Source of the DNA: an uncultured Leptospirales bacterium
GTDB lineage: Bacteria > Spirochaetota > UBA4802 > JAFGDQ01
Assembly (NCBI GenBank): GCA_964626055.1
Contig: CAZVDF010000005.1
Span: 6,057 to 70,056, forward strand
Length of the DNA stretch: 64,000 bases
Direction of reading: 5' to 3'
Positions 53,565 to 62,666 of the stretch are shown one piece after another. Made by a program: the position numbers and the translations under genes. Under the pieces are notes generated by a model. That model did not search any database and had not been told where the DNA came from. It worked only from the letters and a program-made list of their open reading frames with translations. Within the stretch, counting starts at the first letter, position 1, and each line of letters opens with the position of its first letter.

Positions 53565-54653
53565 ATGAATCTTCCAGATAAAATAAAAGATACAAAGCTT
53601 CGCGCTATCGCTGAAAAGGTGCAAGCAAAAATTCCGGTCGATGAAGCCGACACCCGTTTTATGCTTACAACAAACGATATTCTGGATCTGGGCGCAATTG
53701 CTAACTTTGTCAGGATGGAGCGCTACGGTAAAAGTACGTATTACAGCGTTAACATGAATCTCAATTATAGCAATATCTGCGAGCTGAGATGTCCGCTATG
53801 CGCTTATTCATGCGATAAAGGCGATAAGAATGCATTTCTTCTGTCTCTCGATGATATAGGGCAGCGTGTACAAAAGGCTGTTAATGCCGGAATTGACGAA
53901 GTTCATATAGTCGGAGGACTTAATCCGGAACTTAAACTCGATTATTTTGAGTCAATGCTCAGAAGGATAAAAAAGGTAAAGAAGGATATTGTTATTGTAG
54001 CTTTCACAGCAGTTGAATACGACTACTTTGCAAAACTTAACAATCTTTCACTTGAGGATGTTTTTAAAAGACTGATAGATGCAGGCCTTGATGCTATACC
54101 CGGAGGTGGAGCTGAAATATTCTCTTCAAATGTGAGGAACATCATTTCTCCTAAAAAGATTTCCGGCGACAGATGGCTTGAAGTAATGAGGACGGCTCAT
54201 GATTTCGGATTAAAGACCAATGCGACAATGCTGTATAACCAGCTTGAAGAAACTGACGATATTATAGATCATCTGTTCAGGATACGCGCGCTTCAGGAGG
54301 AGACAAGCGGATTTAAAACATTTGTGCCCCTCCTTTTCCACGGCGAAAATACGCAGATAAGATCAAAGCGCTCAACTTCAACGGGATACGACGACATCAG
54401 AATTTATGCGACAGCAAGAATTGTGCTACATAATGTTCCGCATATCAAGGCTTTGTGGATGTATCTCGGCGAGAAAATGGCGCAGCTATTGCTTAACTTC
54501 GGAGTTGACGAGCTCGGCGGGACATACGAAAACGAGAAGGTCGTTCATGCTGCCGGAGCAGGGACTCCGGATTATGGTACGGAGAGTTTTCTTGTACGCT
54601 TGATTAAAGAAGCGGGACTTAAGCCTGTCAGGTCGACGGCGCTGTATAGATAG
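53565..54653 (+). CDS. Radical SAM menaquinone biosynthesis enzyme, MqnC/MqnE family
   Basis: CELRCPLCAY (CxxxCxxC), the TIM-barrel radical SAM pattern, and a C-terminal region typical of futalosine-pathway MqnC/MqnE. The paralog cannot be resolved by eye. Confidence 0.75.
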   Translation: MNLPDKIKDTKLRAIAEKVQAKIPVDEADTRFMLTTNDILDLGAIANFVRMERYGKSTYYSVNMNLNYSNICELRCPLCAYSCDKGDKNAFLLSLDDIGQRVQKAVNAGIDEVHIVGGLNPELKLDYFESMLRRIKKVKKDIVIVAFTAVEYDYFAKLNNLSLEDVFKRLIDAGLDAIPGGGAEIFSSNVRNIISPKKISGDRWLEVMRTAHDFGLKTNATMLYNQLEETDDIIDHLFRIRALQEETSGFKTFVPLLFHGENTQIRSKRSTSTGYDDIRIYATARIVLHNVPHIKALWMYLGEKMAQLLLNFGVDELGGTYENEKVVHAAGAGTPDYGTESFLVRLIKEAGLKPVRSTALYR

Positions 54654-54731
54654 TCTCTGTTTGGTAGCTTTCCTTTCTAAGGGGCTGAGCCGTAACTTAC
54701 TAAAAGAATATATTACTGGTTTTCTGCTTTC

Positions 54732-54915
54732 GGCCCCCTAAATCCCCTTAAAGGGGGACTTAAAAGATTAGTTTTGGTATATAATGGAAAATTGTTTTAG
54801 TATATCAGATTGGATTTATTTTAGTCACTTATCTCGAAATGTGAATGGTATTATCGACTCAAATTTGAGGTCAGGTTGCAAATAAAAGTCCCCCTTTAGG
54901 GGGATTTAGGGGGCC
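54732..54915. repeat. GC-rich inverted-repeat element 2 (30-bp IR arms, ~125-bp AT-rich interior)
   Basis: ggccccctaaatccccttaaagggggactt (54732-54761) versus aagtccccctttagggggatttagggggcc (54886-54915) has one mismatch as a reverse complement. It shares the ccccctaa / ttaggggg motif with element 1. Confidence 0.5.
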
Positions 54916-54952
54916 TTTAATACTGAATTAACAGTTTTCTCGGGTAAAATTT

Positions 54953-55756
54953 ATGAAACTCGGTTATATTGATTATCTAAACTGCTATCCGTTTTATTAT
55001 CATATGTTCGAGAAGAAATCCGTCCCGGATATAAAAGTATTCCCGGATTATCCGAGCAGTCTGAACAGGATGATGCAAAACGGCGACCTCGACATGAGCC
55101 CCATATCCGCAGGCGCATACCCGGATATCGCCGACCGCGCGGTGCTTCTCCCTGATTTCTGCTTAAGCTCCGTAGGCTACGTCGGTTCCGTTAATCTTGT
55201 AAGCAAGGTGCCCATAGAAGAGCTTAGCGGCAAAGCTATTGGTGTTACGAACGCGTCCGCGACTTCCGTTGCGTTAATGAAAGTTCTGCTTGAAAAGTTC
55301 TACGGTCTTATACCTGAGTATATTCCTTCGCCGCCGCTGCCCGACATGAATAAATTCGACGCTGCCCTTTTGATCGGCAACGAGGCAATGATGACGCTTC
55401 CTCTGCCCGTATCTTTCAAATACGACCTTGGTGAGCTATGGTACAGGAAAACGGGCTATCCTGTTGTGTTCGCTGTTTTCGCAGTTCAAAAATCGGCAAT
55501 AGAGAAATATAAATTACAAATTGGCAATGTCGTAGATTCGTATAAAAGATCCCTCGAATGCATGAAAACCGAAAAGGATAAAGTCGTCCGCAAAGCAATG
55601 AAGCGTTATCCGGACATTGTTTATAACGTCGATTTTTACTATAGCTTATTTAAGTTTGAGTTCACAAAGGAACTTAAAGAAGCGCTGCTTTATTACTTTA
55701 AGCTTGCGGGCGAGATGGGGCTTTTAAAGAAAATAGATAGAATTGAGACTCTGTAA
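54953..55756 (+). CDS. Menaquinone biosynthesis protein, MqnA/MqnD family (periplasmic-binding-protein-like fold)
   Basis: N-terminal MKLGYIDYLNCYPFYY and an overall ~270-aa pattern typical of chorismate dehydratase MqnA / MqnD. Confidence 0.7.
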   Translation: MKLGYIDYLNCYPFYYHMFEKKSVPDIKVFPDYPSSLNRMMQNGDLDMSPISAGAYPDIADRAVLLPDFCLSSVGYVGSVNLVSKVPIEELSGKAIGVTNASATSVALMKVLLEKFYGLIPEYIPSPPLPDMNKFDAALLIGNEAMMTLPLPVSFKYDLGELWYRKTGYPVVFAVFAVQKSAIEKYKLQIGNVVDSYKRSLECMKTEKDKVVRKAMKRYPDIVYNVDFYYSLFKFEFTKELKEALLYYFKLAGEMGLLKKIDRIETL

Positions 55757-56143
55757 AAATATTTTTAAATTATATATCTATTTGTAAGCATATTTAATAA
55801 ACAATAGCCGCCGTAAAACCGGCCGTTCCTAGTTCCGAAAAATTATTTTCATCAACTATAAATTCGTTAAAGAGTAATATTGAATTTTGTCTTTCATCCT
55901 TTTCGTTTCCTCAAGATGAGTGGATCAGTTTAAGAACAACAAACGTTATTGAAAGAGTAAATAATGAATTTAAACGTTGTATAAGGTCAATGGAAATATT
56001 GGCGGATTCAGAATCGACATACAGATTATTATATTTTGTAGCTCTGAAAATGGAATTAACTTGGTGATCAGCACCATTGAGAAGGAATAATCTTCTAGCT
56101 AATGAAAAATTTACACAAAAAATTTGATTCTACTCAGAAAGTC

Positions 56144-56290
56144 TGTGCATAAAGACTGACAAATCATATAAAGATTTAAATGCAGATTATTACGAAATTA
56201 TGTATTATAAACGTGTCTTGAAAAATTTTAAGTATTAGGCACCCCAATTGGAATTCTCTTTATTGCCTTTACAGGCTAAGTATCCCAGAA
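56144..56290. repeat. Direct repeat DR1 (~147 bp), upstream copy
   Basis: tgtgcataaagactgacaaatcatataaagatttaaatgcagattattacgaaattatgtatt ... tatcccagaa is about 90% identical to 57465-57610. Confidence 0.65.
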
Positions 56291-56360
56291 GAAGAAAATA
56301 GCATTTACATAAAAAATTTTATTCTGAAAATTTCATAAAAATAATAGGAGGTAATGTATA

Positions 56361-57437
56361 TTGACAAATGATATTTATGAAAGGTTAGCTAATTATTTGG
56401 ATAAACTCCCGGGAGGATTTCCACACACCGAAAGCCAAGTGGAAATACGAATTTTACATCAACTTTTTACACCTCATGAAGCTGAACTTGCAATCCATTT
56501 AAAACTTTTTCCTGAAAAGCCTCAGGTAATTGCTCAACGTGCCGGGATTCCAGTCGACGAAGCTTTACGGCGATTGAAAGAAATGGAAGCCAAAGGACTT
56601 ATCATGAGTTTTAGCCCTGATAATAAAGTATTCTTATATATGGCATTACAGTACATCGTAGGCATTTGGGAAGCACAGCTTAATAAGTTGAACGCTAAGC
56701 TAATCCAAGATCATGAGGAATATTTAGAAACCGTAATGAAACAGTCGTTTTGGCATGGAACTCCTCAAATGAGGACAATTCCGATAAATAGAAGTATCAA
56801 TATCCAAAATGCCGTGATGACTTATGAAAATGCAGAAGACTTGGTAAACAGTCAAAAATCCTTTGCTGTATCTCATTGTATTTGCAGGAAAAGCATGCGT
56901 ATAATTGGTAAAGGCTGTAATAAACCTGAAGAGAGCTGTTTGACTTTTGGACATGTTGCTGATTCTTCTGTAAATGATGGTCGGGCTCGTGCTATAAATA
57001 AGGAAGAAGCCCTATCAATACTTCAGATAGCTGATGAAGCCGGGTTTGTACTCCAACCTAATAATGCTAAAGATCCTCTGTTCATTTGTACATGTTGCGG
57101 TTGCTGCTGTGGAGTGCTAAAAACTCTTAAGCACTATCCTGAACCAGCTAGTATGGTCGTCAGTGCTTTTGCAGCTACTATGAGAAGCGATACTTGCAAA
57201 GGATGTGGCCTTTGCGTTAAACGATGTCAGATGGAAGCAATTCGCATAAATAACAAGAAGGCAGTACTAGATGTGAAACGTTGTATTGGATGTGGGCTAT
57301 GTGTCAGTACATGCCCAACCAATTCTGTTTCTCTTGTACGTAAACCTGACACGGAGCAACCTTATGTACCGAAAGACTTCATTGAAACTAATATGATATT
57401 GGCAAAGAATCGTGGAAAACATAACCTAAACAGATAG
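56361..57437 (+). CDS. 4Fe-4S dicluster domain protein of unknown function (probably horizontally acquired)
   Basis: TTG start 9 nt after aggagg. Two C-terminal ferredoxin motifs (CKGCGLCVKRCQ, CIGCGLCVSTCP) plus extra Cys clusters (HCICRKS, CTCCGCCCG). Codon usage is NCG-poor (cct/gct/gga/aca), unlike the NCG-rich neighbouring genes. Confidence 0.6.
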   Translation: MTNDIYERLANYLDKLPGGFPHTESQVEIRILHQLFTPHEAELAIHLKLFPEKPQVIAQRAGIPVDEALRRLKEMEAKGLIMSFSPDNKVFLYMALQYIVGIWEAQLNKLNAKLIQDHEEYLETVMKQSFWHGTPQMRTIPINRSINIQNAVMTYENAEDLVNSQKSFAVSHCICRKSMRIIGKGCNKPEESCLTFGHVADSSVNDGRARAINKEEALSILQIADEAGFVLQPNNAKDPLFICTCCGCCCGVLKTLKHYPEPASMVVSAFAATMRSDTCKGCGLCVKRCQMEAIRINNKKAVLDVKRCIGCGLCVSTCPTNSVSLVRKPDTEQPYVPKDFIETNMILAKNRGKHNLNR

Positions 57438-57464
57438 ATCGCAAATTAATGTAAGGTAGGTATA

Positions 57465-57610
57465 TGTGCATAAAGACTGACAAATTATATAAAGATTTAA
57501 ATGCAGATTATCACGAAATTATGTATTGAAAACGTGTCTTGAGAAATTTTAAGTATAAGGCACCCAATTGGAATTTTCGTTATTGCCTTTACAGACTTAG
57601 TATCCCAGAA
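57465..57610. repeat. Direct repeat DR2 (~146 bp), downstream copy
   Basis: See DR1. Together the two copies bracket only the 4Fe-4S gene. Confidence 0.65.
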
Positions 57611-57683
57611 TCTTTTCATATTTTCGAGAGTTATCGAATCAGTTCCGGAAGTCGTTCTTAAAAATTTTATAATGTATTTTAAT

Positions 57684-59093
57684 CTATAAATTATATTTTC
57701 TTCTTATATATCTTCCATAGTTTTTCGCATCTCTCCATTGCGGGCGCGTGCCCATGCGATTGACCAATGCCTGTATGATTCTCATGGACATCCGTCTCCA
57801 GTCTGCAGGAGTTGACCATTCCGGACGTCGGCGGGCTACGGAATCCAGCACAGCAAGAGGATTTTTTCCGAGAGCCGGGGAAACATAATAGCGCGGCAGA
57901 AAAAGGTCTGCGTTGCCGGGTATCATTTTTTCTCTGATAGCGATTTTTTCGATCTCAGTATCCGGGTAGATGCGAAGTCCGAGCGATGCGAATACTGCAT
58001 TAGGTGTCTTACATGAGTCCAGAAATCGCTGTACTTCATCTATGTCGCCGGCATTCTCTTCGGGCCCTCCGAAAAGCATTTGTACGACAGCCGGCAGCTT
58101 CGCATTATGTACTGCATTTAAAGATTTGCGGATGTCAGCCTGATCGAATGGTTTTTTCATTACATTAAGCATTTTATCCGTGGCAGCGTCGACGCTCATC
58201 TCTATTCCTATACATCCGGATGCTTTCATAGCTTTCGCCAGCTCATCATCAAATCCTGCCGGATTGCAGTAAGCCATCCATGACACGGAAGAGCCCCGGC
58301 GGATCAGCTCACGGCAGATTTCAAGAGCGTGCTCGGGCGAACTGTTGAAGACATTATCTGTTATGAAAACATAACAGCCTTTGTTATTACTTGAAACATA
58401 TTCGAACTCATCTGCGATAAGGCCGGGATCGCGCAGACGCAGCCTGTGTCCTTCGAGATTCGGATAATTGCAGTAAATGCACTTGAACGGGCATCCGCGC
58501 TTGGTTTGAATGCCTATAAATCCTCCATGTGAAAGATATTTCGTGTATCTGCATAAATGGTGAGCGGGCCGGTGAAGATCATTGACTTCCGGTCGGTCGG
58601 CGGGCGATCCGTAATTACTACGGTAATTAGCCGGTGTTATGATCCCGGCTATGCCGTTCGCCCGTCTGTTTTCTGATATACATTTGAGCAATGAAACAAA
58701 GGCTTTTTCGCCTTCTCCGATCACGCCATAGTCAGGCTTCAAGCGCTCCATCCATCCGGCCGGGGAAATGGAAAAACCGCTTCCGCCGAGTATAAGAGGC
58801 GCATTGGTTAAACGTCGTATATCATCAAAGATTTCTTTTACTCCGTCTAAATATAATTCCTGGAACGCCCATGAACAGCTGTCGAGATTCCGGATTCCTA
58901 TGCCGATTGCAATATAATCACAGGATTTCAGAGCTTTTTTCAGTGCTCTTGCCGGAGACCGGACAAAGGACATATCGATAATATCCGCTTCGTAGCCTGC
59001 CTTTTCAGCAGCCGCAGCCACATATAGCACTCCGAGAGGAGCAACCGGGAAAGGCGACCTGTTCCTGTTCGATGCAACAAGCAGAATCCTCAC
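57684..59093 (-). CDS. B12-binding-domain radical SAM protein
   Basis: N-terminal cobalamin-binding Rossmann region (MRILLVASNRNRSPFPVAPLGVLYVAAAAEKAGYEADIID) and radical SAM CPFKCIYCNYP. Confidence 0.8.
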   Translation of the reverse strand: MRILLVASNRNRSPFPVAPLGVLYVAAAAEKAGYEADIIDMSFVRSPARALKKALKSCDYIAIGIGIRNLDSCSWAFQELYLDGVKEIFDDIRRLTNAPLILGGSGFSISPAGWMERLKPDYGVIGEGEKAFVSLLKCISENRRANGIAGIITPANYRSNYGSPADRPEVNDLHRPAHHLCRYTKYLSHGGFIGIQTKRGCPFKCIYCNYPNLEGHRLRLRDPGLIADEFEYVSSNNKGCYVFITDNVFNSSPEHALEICRELIRRGSSVSWMAYCNPAGFDDELAKAMKASGCIGIEMSVDAATDKMLNVMKKPFDQADIRKSLNAVHNAKLPAVVQMLFGGPEENAGDIDEVQRFLDSCKTPNAVFASLGLRIYPDTEIEKIAIREKMIPGNADLFLPRYYVSPALGKNPLAVLDSVARRRPEWSTPADWRRMSMRIIQALVNRMGTRPQWRDAKNYGRYIRRKYNL

Positions 59094-59319
59094 GCTTTAT
59101 TCTCCTTAAAATGTAAATTATGACAATATTGATTTATTTAAAAAATTATTTACAAGGAATTAATCAATTTGATTTGTTTCACCATAAAATTTGTTGCAAT
59201 TTGAATTGAAATACTACAACCCGTCCTTAAAATAATAATTTACATAAGTAACTGAAAATCATCTCGAAATTATTGATTCAATAAATGATTAACGATAAAT
59301 CGGAATATATAATAAATTT

Positions 59320-62073: not shown

Positions 62074-62364
62074 ATGATAGAGATCAGACAAACAGAAACA
62101 TATAAGAAATGGTTCTCTTCCTTAAGAGACAGAAATGCAAAAATTCGGATTGATATTAGAATTAGAAGACTTTCTCTGGGTAATTATGGAAACGCAAAGC
62201 CTGTAGGAGCTGGAATATCGGAATTAAGAATTAATTACGGCCCGGGTTATAGAATATATTATATAAGAACGGATAATGAAATAATAATTCTGCTGGCAGG
62301 CGGCGATAAATCGACCCAATCAAGGGATATAAAGAAAGCGAAAGAGATTAGAGGTGTGATATGA
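62074..62364 (+). CDS. Type II toxin, RelE/ParE superfamily (HigB-like, COG3657 addiction-module killer)
   Basis: 96 aa. Pattern FSSLRDRNAKIRIDIRIRRLSLGNYGNAKPVGAGISELRINYGPGYRIYY. It overlaps the downstream gene by 4 nt. Confidence 0.7.
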   Translation: MIEIRQTETYKKWFSSLRDRNAKIRIDIRIRRLSLGNYGNAKPVGAGISELRINYGPGYRIYYIRTDNEIIILLAGGDKSTQSRDIKKAKEIRGVI

Positions 62365-62666
62365 AAAAAGAAAAAATAAGCATATGGGATGCTGCAGAGC
62401 ACCTTGAAACTGAAAAAGATATGGCCGCATATTTAGAAGCAGCATTGGAAGAAAATGACCCTTCACTAATTGCAGCTGCGTTGGGTGACATCGCGAGGGC
62501 TAAAGGAATGTCACGAATATCGAAGCGGACAGGACTTGGCAGGGAAAGCCTGTACAAAGCATTATCACCGGAGGGAAATCCTGAATTTTCTACAATACTA
62601 AAAGTTGTCAATGCTTTGGGATTAAAATTTCAGGCTGTTCCTGGAAAAATTAAATCTGCGGTTTAA
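62361..62666 (+). CDS. Cognate antitoxin (HigA-like / COG3636 addiction-module antidote, HTH)
   Basis: 101 aa. WDAAEHLETEKDMAAYLEAALEE...IAAALGDIARAKGMSRISKRTGLGRESLYKAL is the HTH core of this antidote family. Confidence 0.7.
   Translation: MKKEKISIWDAAEHLETEKDMAAYLEAALEENDPSLIAAALGDIARAKGMSRISKRTGLGRESLYKALSPEGNPEFSTILKVVNALGLKFQAVPGKIKSAV

Follow-up and report, generated by a model that had tools for sequence, protein, structure and literature searches.

A horizontally acquired, 3'-truncated iron-sulfur protein gene beside an IS256-family remnant in the futalosine-pathway cluster of an uncultured Leptospirales bacterium

Results

Organization of the locus

The DNA analysed here, called the window throughout, is a 64-kb stretch from an uncultured Leptospirales bacterium. 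In it, the mqnD gene of the futalosine pathway and a convergent gene for a B12-binding radical SAM (B12-rSAM) enzyme are separated by a region that contains a gene for an Fe-S protein, two direct repeats (DR1 and DR2) and the remains of an insertion sequence (IS). The features are, in their order along the forward strand:

54953-55756, plus strand: mqnD (chorismate dehydratase, futalosine pathway), left native flank; PF02621, E = 1e-58
55846-56133, plus strand: decayed 3' remnant of an IS256-family (Mutator-type) transposase gene with the IS right end; PF00872
56109-56131, plus strand: IS-end 23-mer, copy a, ATTTACACAAAAAATTTGATTCT, the terminal 23 nt of the IS remnant
56144-56290, plus strand: DR1, 147 nt, 30% GC
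56303-56325, plus strand: solo IS right-end 23-mer, copy b, ATTTACATAAAAAATTTTATTCT, directly against the 5' leader of the Fe-S gene
56346-56351, plus strand: AGGAGG ribosome-binding site, 9 nt before the TTG start, read from the sequence
56361-57437, plus strand: foreign Fe-S protein gene, 358 aa, identified by its ORF, Fer4 matches, homologues and composition
57421-57464, plus strand: right junction, 44 nt, consisting of five unrelated codons, the stop codon and a 27-nt spacer before DR2
57465-57610, plus strand: DR2, 146 nt, 30% GC
57611-57683, no strand: AT-rich spacer, 73 nt, 26% GC, between DR2 and the stop codon of the B12-rSAM gene
57684-59093, minus strand: B12-binding radical SAM gene, right native flank; PF02310 and PF04055

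The direct repeats

DR1 and DR2 are sharp-edged direct repeats, and on this a repeat finder, MAFFT and blastn/nhmmer agree. Their alignment has 147 columns with 10 substitutions and one 1-nt indel (blastn E = 1.6e-47). The ~147-bp repeats reported in the first-pass annotation are thus real, but their identity is 92.5% instead of the ~90% given there. Both copies extend from TGTGCATAAAG to TATCCCAGAA, and the four flanks are mutually unrelated according to MAFFT. The 11 mismatched positions are evenly scattered, the longest identical run is 25 nt, and no conserved core stands out. From DR1 to DR2 the period is 1321 nt, and the layout corresponds to exactly 1.11 copies of a 1321-nt unit.

A motif search with up to 3 mismatches recovered only DR1 and DR2 in the 64-kb window, with 0 hits in 100 shuffles. 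GTDB genomes, JGI metagenomes and IMG/VR, scanned with exact 21-mers from two parts of the repeat, gave chance matches of 21-37 nt and no repeat copy; copies diverged at the seed sites would be missed by this procedure. Plasmid sequences showed no similarity to the 147-nt repeat. An apparent third copy at 59234-59281 was discarded, as it reaches 71% over 48 nt only and is not recovered by nhmmer; it also resembles several other AT-rich spacers, which have no motif in common.

The repeat has no terminal inverted repeats (TIRs), and no internal inverted repeats beyond A/T runs. Its predicted RNA fold is unremarkable on both strands (MFE -16.5 to -20.1 kcal/mol, z = +0.4 to +1.3 against shuffles), and Rfam gave no match in the window at the gathering threshold and none inside the repeats at E values up to 1. 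For lack of an Rfam match and of excess folding energy, a structured RNA or riboswitch was rejected. An attC site was rejected for want of a palindrome, hairpin or fold, and a MITE because there are no TIRs, no target-site duplication (the flanks being unrelated), only two copies, and none in the collections by exact 21-mer seeds. When the start of the repeat was compared by eye with the reverse-complemented IS end, 10-12 matches in 22-26 positions were counted, too few to make an IS left end convincing. We also dropped an attL/attR-type genomic islet: the window has no tRNA gene, no integrase or tyrosine recombinase was seen among the ~30 ORFs scanned, and there is no identical core, the longest identical run being the one of 25 nt.

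The IS256-family remnant

The IS remnant adjoins DR1. Its match to PF00872 covers positions 322-376 of 379 (E = 1.1e-8; 34.9 bits, above the gathering score). An in-frame TGA at 56065-56067 stands in place of an Arg found in homologues; beyond it, the frame continues to a TGA at 56125-56127 (...KFTQKI-stop). Homologues of the fragment are 62-78% identical, and its tblastn matches are annotated as IS256 family transposase. Since the transposase gene is truncated and has an in-frame stop, the element is a remnant and not an active IS. Over 55846-56133, it is 72.6% identical at the nucleotide level to a homologous locus (L043); this similarity ends at ...CTAC, which places the IS right end at ~56133.

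DR1 sits between two copies of this right end. Copies a and b are identical in 21 of 23 positions, a score reached by 0 of 1000 shuffles; they are the only two matches of the 23-mer in the window, and no inverted partner was found there. The 23-mer is probably the inverted-repeat (IRR) region of the IS: the start of copy a seems to resemble the inner part of the IS256 IRR (TTTTACACAA). At the 3' junction of the Fe-S gene, neither a second IS end nor a target duplication was found. Searches for a full-length IS or its left end gave only fragments of 47-94 aa and plasmid matches of <47% identity, and nothing in viral contigs. Because the full-length IS and the left end were not found, some chance remains that the repeat itself stems from the IS.

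The Fe-S gene and its missing 3' end

The Fe-S gene was described earlier as having a TTG start with a strong ribosome-binding site, and both assignments are sound. The TTG aligns with the Met of all homologues, and the homologue loci carry AGGAG(G) at the position equivalent to 56346-56351. Also correct is the description of a Cys-rich protein with two ferredoxin motifs and CTCCGCCCG. The N-terminal region of the protein is helical (wHTH-like). It is followed by a Cys-rich central part, with C173-x-C175, C186, C193 and CTCCGCCCG (residues 243-251), and the C-terminus is formed by a 2x[4Fe-4S] ferredoxin domain, in which PF00037, PF14697 and PF12838 match residues 272-323 with two CxxCxxCxxxC(P) motifs. 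In the alignment with its homologues, every family-invariant Cys is retained. A search of the PDB with the protein's profile matched the ferredoxin domain only, so that ~260 residues are without a solved relative, and the predicted structure (mean pLDDT 50.5, pTM 0.37) was too poor for a fold search.

The protein has 7243 homologues, the best of them 69% identical, and nearly all of the matches listed are 373-376 aa or longer. Those with an organism name come from Thermodesulfobacteriota and Syntrophales MAGs. Compared with 32 aligned members (58-69% identity over 353 residues), the window protein departs from the others at 10 of the 112 columns in which these do not vary, the median for members being 1. 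It also lacks the conserved C-terminal tail ...GMQVRSKLDRLLA of ~17-22 aa, present in 32/32 of them. Similarity to a homologue locus (L010) begins at nucleotide 56328, and family homology ends at ~57420, as judged by blastn (the matches to L009 and L011 stop at 57420), the protein alignment and hmmsearch of the reading frames. Downstream of DR2, the family HMM finds nothing of the lost tail. A candidate tail peptide in frame 3 at 57631 (LSNQFRKSFLKIL followed by a stop) ranked 168 of 72,919 in a profile scan, which is not significant.

The gene had been called "bracketed exactly" by the repeats. This does not apply to either side: between DR1 and the start codon lie 70 nt, part of which is an IS-end fragment, and at its 3' end the gene has been cut short. 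As the conserved C-terminal tail is missing, the locus is not an intact, exactly bracketed cassette. The proposal of a clean single-gene cassette fails as well, given that the IS256-family remnant and a second 23-nt end copy flank DR1. The IS256 remnant, the second IS-end copy and the missing tail are three features that the first-pass annotation did not contain.

Composition and comparison with relatives

Atypical codon usage of the Fe-S gene was also claimed at the outset, and the comparison with the ORFs of >=150 aa in the window, 51 in number, bears this out. The gene has the lowest GC3 (0.30; others 0.33-0.55), the lowest CpG o/e (0.73; others 1.00-1.66) and the lowest share of NCG codons in the Ser/Pro/Thr/Ala boxes, 5/69 (0.07) against 1023/3450 (Fisher p = 1e-5). 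In counts, its GC3 is 106/357 as against 7927/17851 (p = 2e-8). By leave-one-out synonymous-codon likelihood, it is only third lowest (z = -2.1). Its CpG o/e matches that of the homologues at L009-L011 (0.66-0.71), unlike host genes with their 1.0-1.66, whereas the GC3 of family homologues is 0.57-0.62.

A relative with ~80% nucleotide identity (L002) provides the comparison of gene order. Its mqnD is 82.7% identical to that of the window at the nucleotide level and its B12-rSAM gene 77%; the latter protein in the window reaches 330.8 bits against TIGR04072 (cut-off 360), and the only named organism among its nearest homologues is a Spirochaetes MAG (68% identity). A spacer of 105 bp separates mqnD from the convergent B12-rSAM gene in L002, and it holds no Fe-S gene, no IS and no repeat. 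A second contig, which encodes the same MqnD protein as L002, has the same 105-nt spacing. It follows from this empty site that ~1.9 kb has been inserted in the window. The comparison rests on one lineage, ~20% diverged, and its 105-nt spacer is not alignable with the window (scores below the shuffle mean, no significant similarity to 57611-57683), so that the insertion borders given here are approximate and the repeats may stem from the host or from the donor. An insertion with duplicated target flanks, as suggested in the first-pass annotation, would predict an empty site with one repeat copy in related genomes. The empty site is there in L002, but without a single repeat copy, which does not support the suggestion.

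Discussion

Origin of the insert and its repeats

The locus contains horizontally acquired DNA: atypical composition, a relative's empty site and mobile-element remains are all present. Neither host-like codon statistics nor the same gene with the same flanks in relatives was found, and both would have spoken against acquisition. Of the "recently acquired cassette" proposed earlier, the acquisition therefore stands on composition, the empty site in L002 and a best homologue of only 69% identity; "recent" is doubtful in view of the 7.5% divergence between the repeats and the state of the IS, which has decayed (truncated, with an in-frame stop). It is an ordinary case of gene acquisition.

We consider it reasonably probable that the insert is an IS-associated foreign fragment and that the repeats are the scar of a tandem duplication followed by a deletion. 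On this reading, 55757-57683 would be ~1.9 kb of horizontally acquired DNA in the mqnD/B12-rSAM spacer of the chromosomal futalosine-pathway cluster. The fragment would have arrived attached to an IS256-family IS with its right end ~35 nt upstream of the Fe-S gene, and the gene would already have been without its last 17-22 or so codons. The repeats would date from a subsequent rearrangement, which affected a segment made up of the IS right end, the leader, the gene, 27 nt and R, where R denotes the 147-nt repeat. A tandem duplication of ~1.32 kb may have been the first step, and the deletion of leader and gene from the first copy the second. This would result in the order IS remnant, IS-end(a), 12 nt, R, 12 nt, IS-end(b), leader, gene, 27 nt, R' and spacer, after which the IS would have decayed and the repeats drifted apart by 7.5%.

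The two pairs are in collinear order (IS-end a at 56109, R at 56144, IS-end b at 56303, R' at 57465) and have diverged to a similar extent, by 2/23 (8.7%) for the IS ends and 11/147 (7.5%) for the repeats. Such similar divergence of both pairs fits one duplication of a unit containing both. Against a simple duplication plus deletion, the 12-nt stretches 56132-56143 and 56291-56302 are unaccounted for, and the duplicated unit would have to begin, on its left, suspiciously near the inner edge of the IS terminal repeat. As to intermediates, neither a single R nor an IS-gene-R arrangement without duplication was found. Duplication and deletion would still seem the most economical path, and the 147-nt repeats look like a rearrangement scar and not like the termini of a novel mobile cassette. 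Whereas the repeats, the foreign composition, the relative's empty site, the IS remnant with its second end copy and the missing C-terminal tail are observed, the kind and sequence of the rearrangements, the expression of the gene and the donor of the DNA are inferred.

The same structure could also result from a Campbell-type integration, in which a 1321-nt circle (R, IS-end, leader, truncated gene, 27 nt) undergoes a single crossover with an R beside the IS remnant to yield R-insert-R', or from a variant of it, homology-facilitated illegitimate recombination anchored in the IS. The 1.11-unit layout agrees with it, the same IS end is found on both partners, and the even spread of the repeat differences is as expected for recombination between diverged homologues. 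We nevertheless hold it to be unlikely, since it needs a pre-existing R with identical borders in both partners. No R is present at the L002 empty site, no other copy turned up in the window or the collections searched, and 147 nt with perfect runs of <=25 nt would serve recombination poorly as an anchor. Quite improbable, in our estimation, is that the repeats delimit a discrete unit that moves or recombines, be it as two small non-autonomous elements or as attL/attR-like sites of a trans-mobilised (integron- or CIME-like) cassette. In its favour, both copies have identical sharp borders amid four unrelated flanks; one copy may interrupt the 3' end of the Fe-S gene, and the peptide after DR2 gives a weak hint of a displaced tail (rank 168/72,919, roughly p = 0.13 allowing for ~60 windows). 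However, the repeat has neither TIRs nor a conserved core, and it does not fold into a hairpin or an attC-like structure. The ORFs scanned include no integrase, the window contains no tRNA, and to its two repeat copies the two 21-mer seeds added none from the three collections. The specific case of a small integrase-less single-gene cassette, with the repeats as recognition or recombination sites, mobilised in trans or by host recombination, and with only incidental IS fragments, we judge to be extremely unlikely; if true, the Fe-S gene could be shuttled or amplified by way of an excised circle of 1.3 kb.

The Fe-S gene could also be ancestral at the site and lost in the L002 lineage, its odd composition being due to constraints of its own; that the empty site is known from one lineage, ~20% diverged and with non-alignable spacers, leaves room for this. 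But had the gene been lost through recombination of the two repeats, a single copy should have stayed behind, and L002 shows no such copy in its 105-nt spacer. The junction carries an IS remnant, the gene is truncated, its CpG depletion is like that of distant homologues and unlike the host, and with a best homologue at 69% and named homologues in other phyla we find an ancestral gene very hard to credit. An assembly artefact, in which the metagenome-assembled genome would owe its repeat-gene-repeat layout to a chimera of strain variants, is hardly conceivable. The contig is of the MAG type, and a contig of an independent Logan assembly stops inside DR2 at 57558; yet this second assembly equals 54154-57558 at 100% identity and so reproduces DR1, the gene and 94 nt of DR2. 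Collapse of k-mers or end overlap is inapplicable, because the repeats have 11 differences and exact runs of <=25 nt.

Comparison with known systems

IS256-family elements can form hybrid promoters with neighbouring genes, and a single IS copy can mobilise a gene. The locus resembles IS-associated gene capture, or the collapse of IS-linked tandem segments, in that its foreign DNA is bordered by a Mutator/IS256-type transposase remnant, the leader of the cargo directly adjoins an IS end, the cargo is cut at its far end, and the geometry of the direct repeats is that of a partly collapsed tandem duplication. It differs in being a fossil, without an intact transposase, a recognisable left end or an identifiable 8-9 bp target duplication. 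Chromosomal integrons occur in spirochaetes, and a single foreign gene between similar repeats of ~100-150 nt recalls their gene cassettes. However, the repeat of the window has no imperfect palindrome or hairpin, no intI was seen, there is no cassette array, and the gene is truncated. With MITEs the repeat shares that it is short, AT-rich, non-coding, sharply bordered and repeated, but TIRs and a target duplication are missing, there are two copies, and no database relatives were found. The Fe-S protein itself belongs to a family of ~375 aa that is common in Syntrophales/Thermodesulfobacteriota metagenomes and whose annotation varies with the source (RnfB-like, ferredoxin, PreA/Lrp-type). It keeps the invariant cysteines and the ferredoxin domain of this family, and departs from it in the lost C-terminal tail, the TTG start and a much lower GC3.

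Function and annotation of the Fe-S gene

Because the ORF is intact, the ribosome-binding site strong and all cluster-binding cysteines are kept, the Fe-S gene may be expressed, possibly from the junction of IS end and leader. A promoter-like TTTACA-16-GAAAAT at 56304-56331 is weak and not above shuffle expectation.

Its position next to the B12-rSAM gene led to the suggestion that the Fe-S protein could be the redox partner of that enzyme. B12-rSAM enzymes need a reductant, the genes are adjacent, and a 2x[4Fe-4S] ferredoxin domain is present. We think it very improbable, however, that the protein was recruited as a dedicated electron donor. The genes are convergent and not co-transcribed, DR2 lies between them, and the Fe-S protein is without its conserved tail. 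Relatives retain the B12-rSAM gene without the Fe-S gene, in L042 together with HAD and in L002 together with mqnD, and three Fe-S homologues stand alone in unrelated contexts with no B12-rSAM neighbour. We take the gene for an accessory passenger, outside menaquinone and B12-rSAM function; neither a role in menaquinone synthesis nor a partnership with the B12-rSAM enzyme should be read into it. For its annotation, we suggest "3'-truncated, IS-linked acquisition".

The locus offers one dated example (7.5% repeat divergence) of IS256-type capture in an uncultured lineage. It adds no functional clue to the Fe-S family and matters little beyond annotation; the family, abundant, of undescribed function and with ~260 residues lacking a solved relative, poses the more interesting question. 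The futalosine-pathway cluster has taken in accessory DNA in the form of this insert, a toxin-antitoxin pair and a MITE-like element. The latter, with 30-nt TIRs, is located at 54732-54915, 1.2 kb upstream, and is quite unlike the 147-nt repeat.

Structure of the locus

The two direct repeats described in the first-pass annotation are real: a repeat search, MAFFT and blastn/nhmmer all pair 56144-56290 (DR1) with 57465-57610 (DR2; blastn E-value 1.6e-47). Over 147 alignment columns, the copies differ by 10 substitutions (6 transitions and 4 transversions) and one 1-nt indel, which corresponds to 92.5% identity. The mismatches are evenly distributed, with no identical run longer than 25 nt. The edges of the repeat are sharp (TGTGCATAAAG ... 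TATCCCAGAA), and the four flanks of DR1 and DR2 share no similarity with one another when aligned with MAFFT. When the 64-kb window was searched with two distinct sub-patterns (21 to 37 nt, up to 3 mismatches), only these 2 copies came up. A candidate third copy at 59234-59281 (71% over 48 nt) was rejected; it was missed by nhmmer and resembles several AT-rich spacers that have no motif in common. The left border of DR1 (56135-56158) overlaps a local imperfect tandem, CAGAAAGTCTG(TG) and then CATAAAGACTG(AC) with 9/13 matches, which is not present at DR2. This tandem may be a trace of junction formation, or it may be due to chance in purine-/AT-rich DNA.

Order of features between mqnD and the B12-radical SAM (B12-rSAM) gene
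54953-55756 (+): mqnD
55846-56133: IS256-family remnant, followed by ~10 nt
56144-56290: DR1, followed by 12 nt
56303-56325: second copy of the IS end, followed by a 35-nt leader with the ribosome-binding site
56361-57437 (+): Fe-S gene, minus its last ~17-22 codons; 44 unrelated nt separate the end of homology from DR2
57465-57610: DR2, followed by 73 nt up to the B12-rSAM stop codon
57684-59093 (-): B12-rSAM gene

There is no evidence that the repeat represents a repeat family, an attC site, a MITE or an att site, because it has no stable fold (MFE -16.5 to -20.1 kcal/mol, z +0.4 to +1.3, both strands), no Rfam match, no terminal or internal inverted repeats and no visible target duplication at its flanks, and because no tRNA genes were found in the window, no integrase among the ~30 window ORFs scanned and no further copies in the collections searched. 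Exact 21-mers from two parts of the repeat were used as seeds against 185,579 GTDB genomes, JGI metagenome contigs and IMG/VR; the matches returned, 21-37 nt long, were all attributable to chance. A plasmid search found nothing. As read from the sequence, an ORF is not maintained across both copies.

Most of the spacer to the left of DR1 is taken up by a decayed element of the IS256 family. When translated, 55900-56064 aligns with positions 322-376 of the 379 in PF00872, with a score above the gathering threshold (E 1.1e-8), and the nearest relatives are transposase fragments with 62-78% identity. The reading frame carries a TGA at 56065-56067 in place of the Arg of its homologues and runs on to ...KFTQKI and a stop at 56125-56127; nucleotide similarity to a related element (L043) extends from 55846 to 56133, ending ...CTAC. 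The end of the frame and of this similarity would place the right end of the IS ~10 nt before DR1. Its terminal 23 nt (56109-56131) are repeated at 56303-56325 with 21/23 identity, a score that was reached in 0/1000 shuffles, and have no further match in the window. This second copy lies 12 nt 3' of DR1, directly before 56328, where similarity to the leader of a homologue begins. DR1 is thus enclosed by two copies of the IS right end in one orientation, the second of which touches the Fe-S gene. In the collections searched, this IS256 clade was seen only as fragments. All eight database relatives (P0244-P0251) are short (47-94 aa), and L043 (295-582) is likewise a truncated 3' IS remnant, which abuts a large gene at its end.

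The Fe-S gene

The ORF starts with a TTG codon, which lies 9 nt 3' of AGGAGG and lines up with the initiator Met in every aligned homologue. A conserved C-terminal tail (...GKLIGMQVRSKLDRLLA..) ends 32/32 aligned homologues, and nearly all of the 120 matches listed have a length of 373-376 aa or more; the protein in the window is 358 aa long, and its last five residues, following ...RGK, are unrelated. Nucleotide similarity to homologous genes stops at 57420. The gene is thus 3'-truncated. The description of the gene as exactly bracketed by the repeats is inaccurate, because of the IS remnant, the second IS end, which together with the leader separates DR1 from the gene, and the lost 3' end. 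For a truncated gene next to a repeat that adjoins an IS remnant and is flanked by IS-end copies, the term cassette is not supported either.

The reported contrast in codon usage was confirmed. In a comparison of 51 non-overlapping window ORFs, each of at least 150 aa, the Fe-S gene has the lowest GC3 (0.30; remaining ORFs 0.33-0.55; Fisher test, p = 2e-8), the lowest CpG observed/expected ratio (0.73; remaining ORFs 1.00-1.66) and the lowest share of NCG codons in the four-fold Ser/Pro/Thr/Ala boxes (0.07; next 0.15, median 0.28; p = 1e-5). Its leave-one-out synonymous-codon likelihood is less extreme, being only the third lowest (z = -2.1). The CpG depletion is like that of homologues in other genomes (0.66-0.71 at three loci, L009-L011) and unlike that of host genes. 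The best database homologue is 69% identical, and homologues with an organism name come from Thermodesulfobacteriota and Syntrophales MAGs.

Pfam and NCBIfam match the protein only at a C-terminal 2x[4Fe-4S] ferredoxin domain (residues 272-323), and this domain alone was matched in sequence and profile searches of the PDB (MvhB, RnfB, HdrA and others). An AlphaFold model built from a 33-sequence alignment has a mean pLDDT of 50.5 and is confident in the N-terminal helical region only. All family-invariant cysteines are present: C173, C175, C186, C193, six in CTCCGCCCG and the eight ferredoxin ligands. The protein departs from the others at 10/112 columns that are invariant among them (median 1) and is thus the most deviant member, in a comparison biased by the selection of the other sequences for similarity to it. 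That it might be a redox partner of the B12-rSAM enzyme is not supported: the two genes are convergent with DR2 between them, the Fe-S gene is missing from relatives that carry the B12-rSAM gene, and three Fe-S homologues sit alone among unrelated genes with no B12-rSAM gene nearby.

Empty site and origin of the arrangement

An MqnD more than 90% identical to that of the window is encoded on two JGI contigs. In one of them, L002, the relative with the empty site, whose flanking genes are 77-83% identical in nucleotide sequence, the mqnD stop codon is followed by 105 bp and the convergent B12-rSAM gene, and this spacer lacks the Fe-S gene, the IS and any repeat-like sequence. The second contig (84.7 kb) has the same 105-nt spacing according to its gene table, and the more distant L042 (~72-74% identity) retains the HAD / B12-rSAM pair. 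In the window, the same interval measures 1927 bp (55757-57683). The nearest B12-rSAM homologues carry a single organism name, that of a Spirochaetes MAG (68% identity). The anticipated empty site exists, but without the single repeat copy expected there. Had L002 lost the segment through recombination between the repeats, one such copy would have stayed behind, and the simplest reading of the comparison is an insertion in the window's lineage. Foreign acquisition is supported by the atypical composition, the empty site and the IS remnant at DR1. A recent date is not. The locus is best read as the relic of an IS-mediated gene capture that was later scarred by rearrangement; the phenomenon is ordinary, and the present case is previously undescribed.

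The repeat pairs are collinear (IS end 56109, R 56144, IS end 56303, R' 57465) and about equally diverged (2/23 for the IS ends, 11/147 for R), so that one duplication of a unit holding both would produce the pattern. We infer that capture, tandem duplication and then deletion is the most likely history. An IS256-type element with an adjoining, distally cut Fe-S gene would have lodged in the mqnD / B12-rSAM spacer in the order IS, leader, gene, 27 nt, R, spacer; ~1.32 kb, from the IS end through R, would have been duplicated in tandem, and leader and gene would have been lost from the first copy. Tandem amplification and subsequent collapse of IS-linked genes are well known. No intermediate of this path was found, the 12-nt pieces on each side of DR1 do not follow from it and are unexplained, and the left edge of the unit would fall beside the IS terminal repeat. 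Campbell-type integration of a 1321-nt circle at a pre-existing copy of R fits the geometry of the R-insert-R' layout equally well, but it needs R in two places beforehand. The repeats could still recombine today and excise the Fe-S gene, but such events should be uncommon, because perfect runs do not exceed 25 nt.

Assembly and neighbouring features

A contig from an independent Logan assembly of SRR8925802 (L001) matches 54154-57558 at 100% identity, and the 11 differences between DR1 and DR2 rule out a k-mer overlap artefact. L001 breaks off halfway through DR2. Because the exact runs are short (<=25 nt), a k-mer repeat is unlikely to be the reason; the population may be heterogeneous here.

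A 184-nt MITE-like element (54732-54915) lies in the spacer that separates mqnD from the first CofH_C radical SAM gene (mqnC/E-like). Its terminal inverted repeats are 30 nt long (29/30, GGCCCCCTAAATCCCCTTAAAGGGGGACTT), no other pair of this kind occurs in the window, and each arm has a CCCC/GGGG hairpin. The element has no blastn match in L002. The B12-rSAM protein scores 330.8 bits against TIGR04072 ('lipid biosynthesis B12-binding/radical SAM protein', rSAM_ladder_B12), just below the 360-bit cut-off. Its gene is divergent with a HAD-IB hydrolase gene in the window, in L042 and on a contig of JGI 3300075153; its placement inside the futalosine cluster could be meaningful or coincidental. 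Another accessory insert in the menaquinone cluster is a toxin-antitoxin pair at 62074-62666, with the ABC-F gene on one side and the second CofH_C radical SAM (mqn) gene on the other; its members are a Gp49/HigB-like protein (PF05973) and, as antidote, a protein of the HI1420 type (PF21716).
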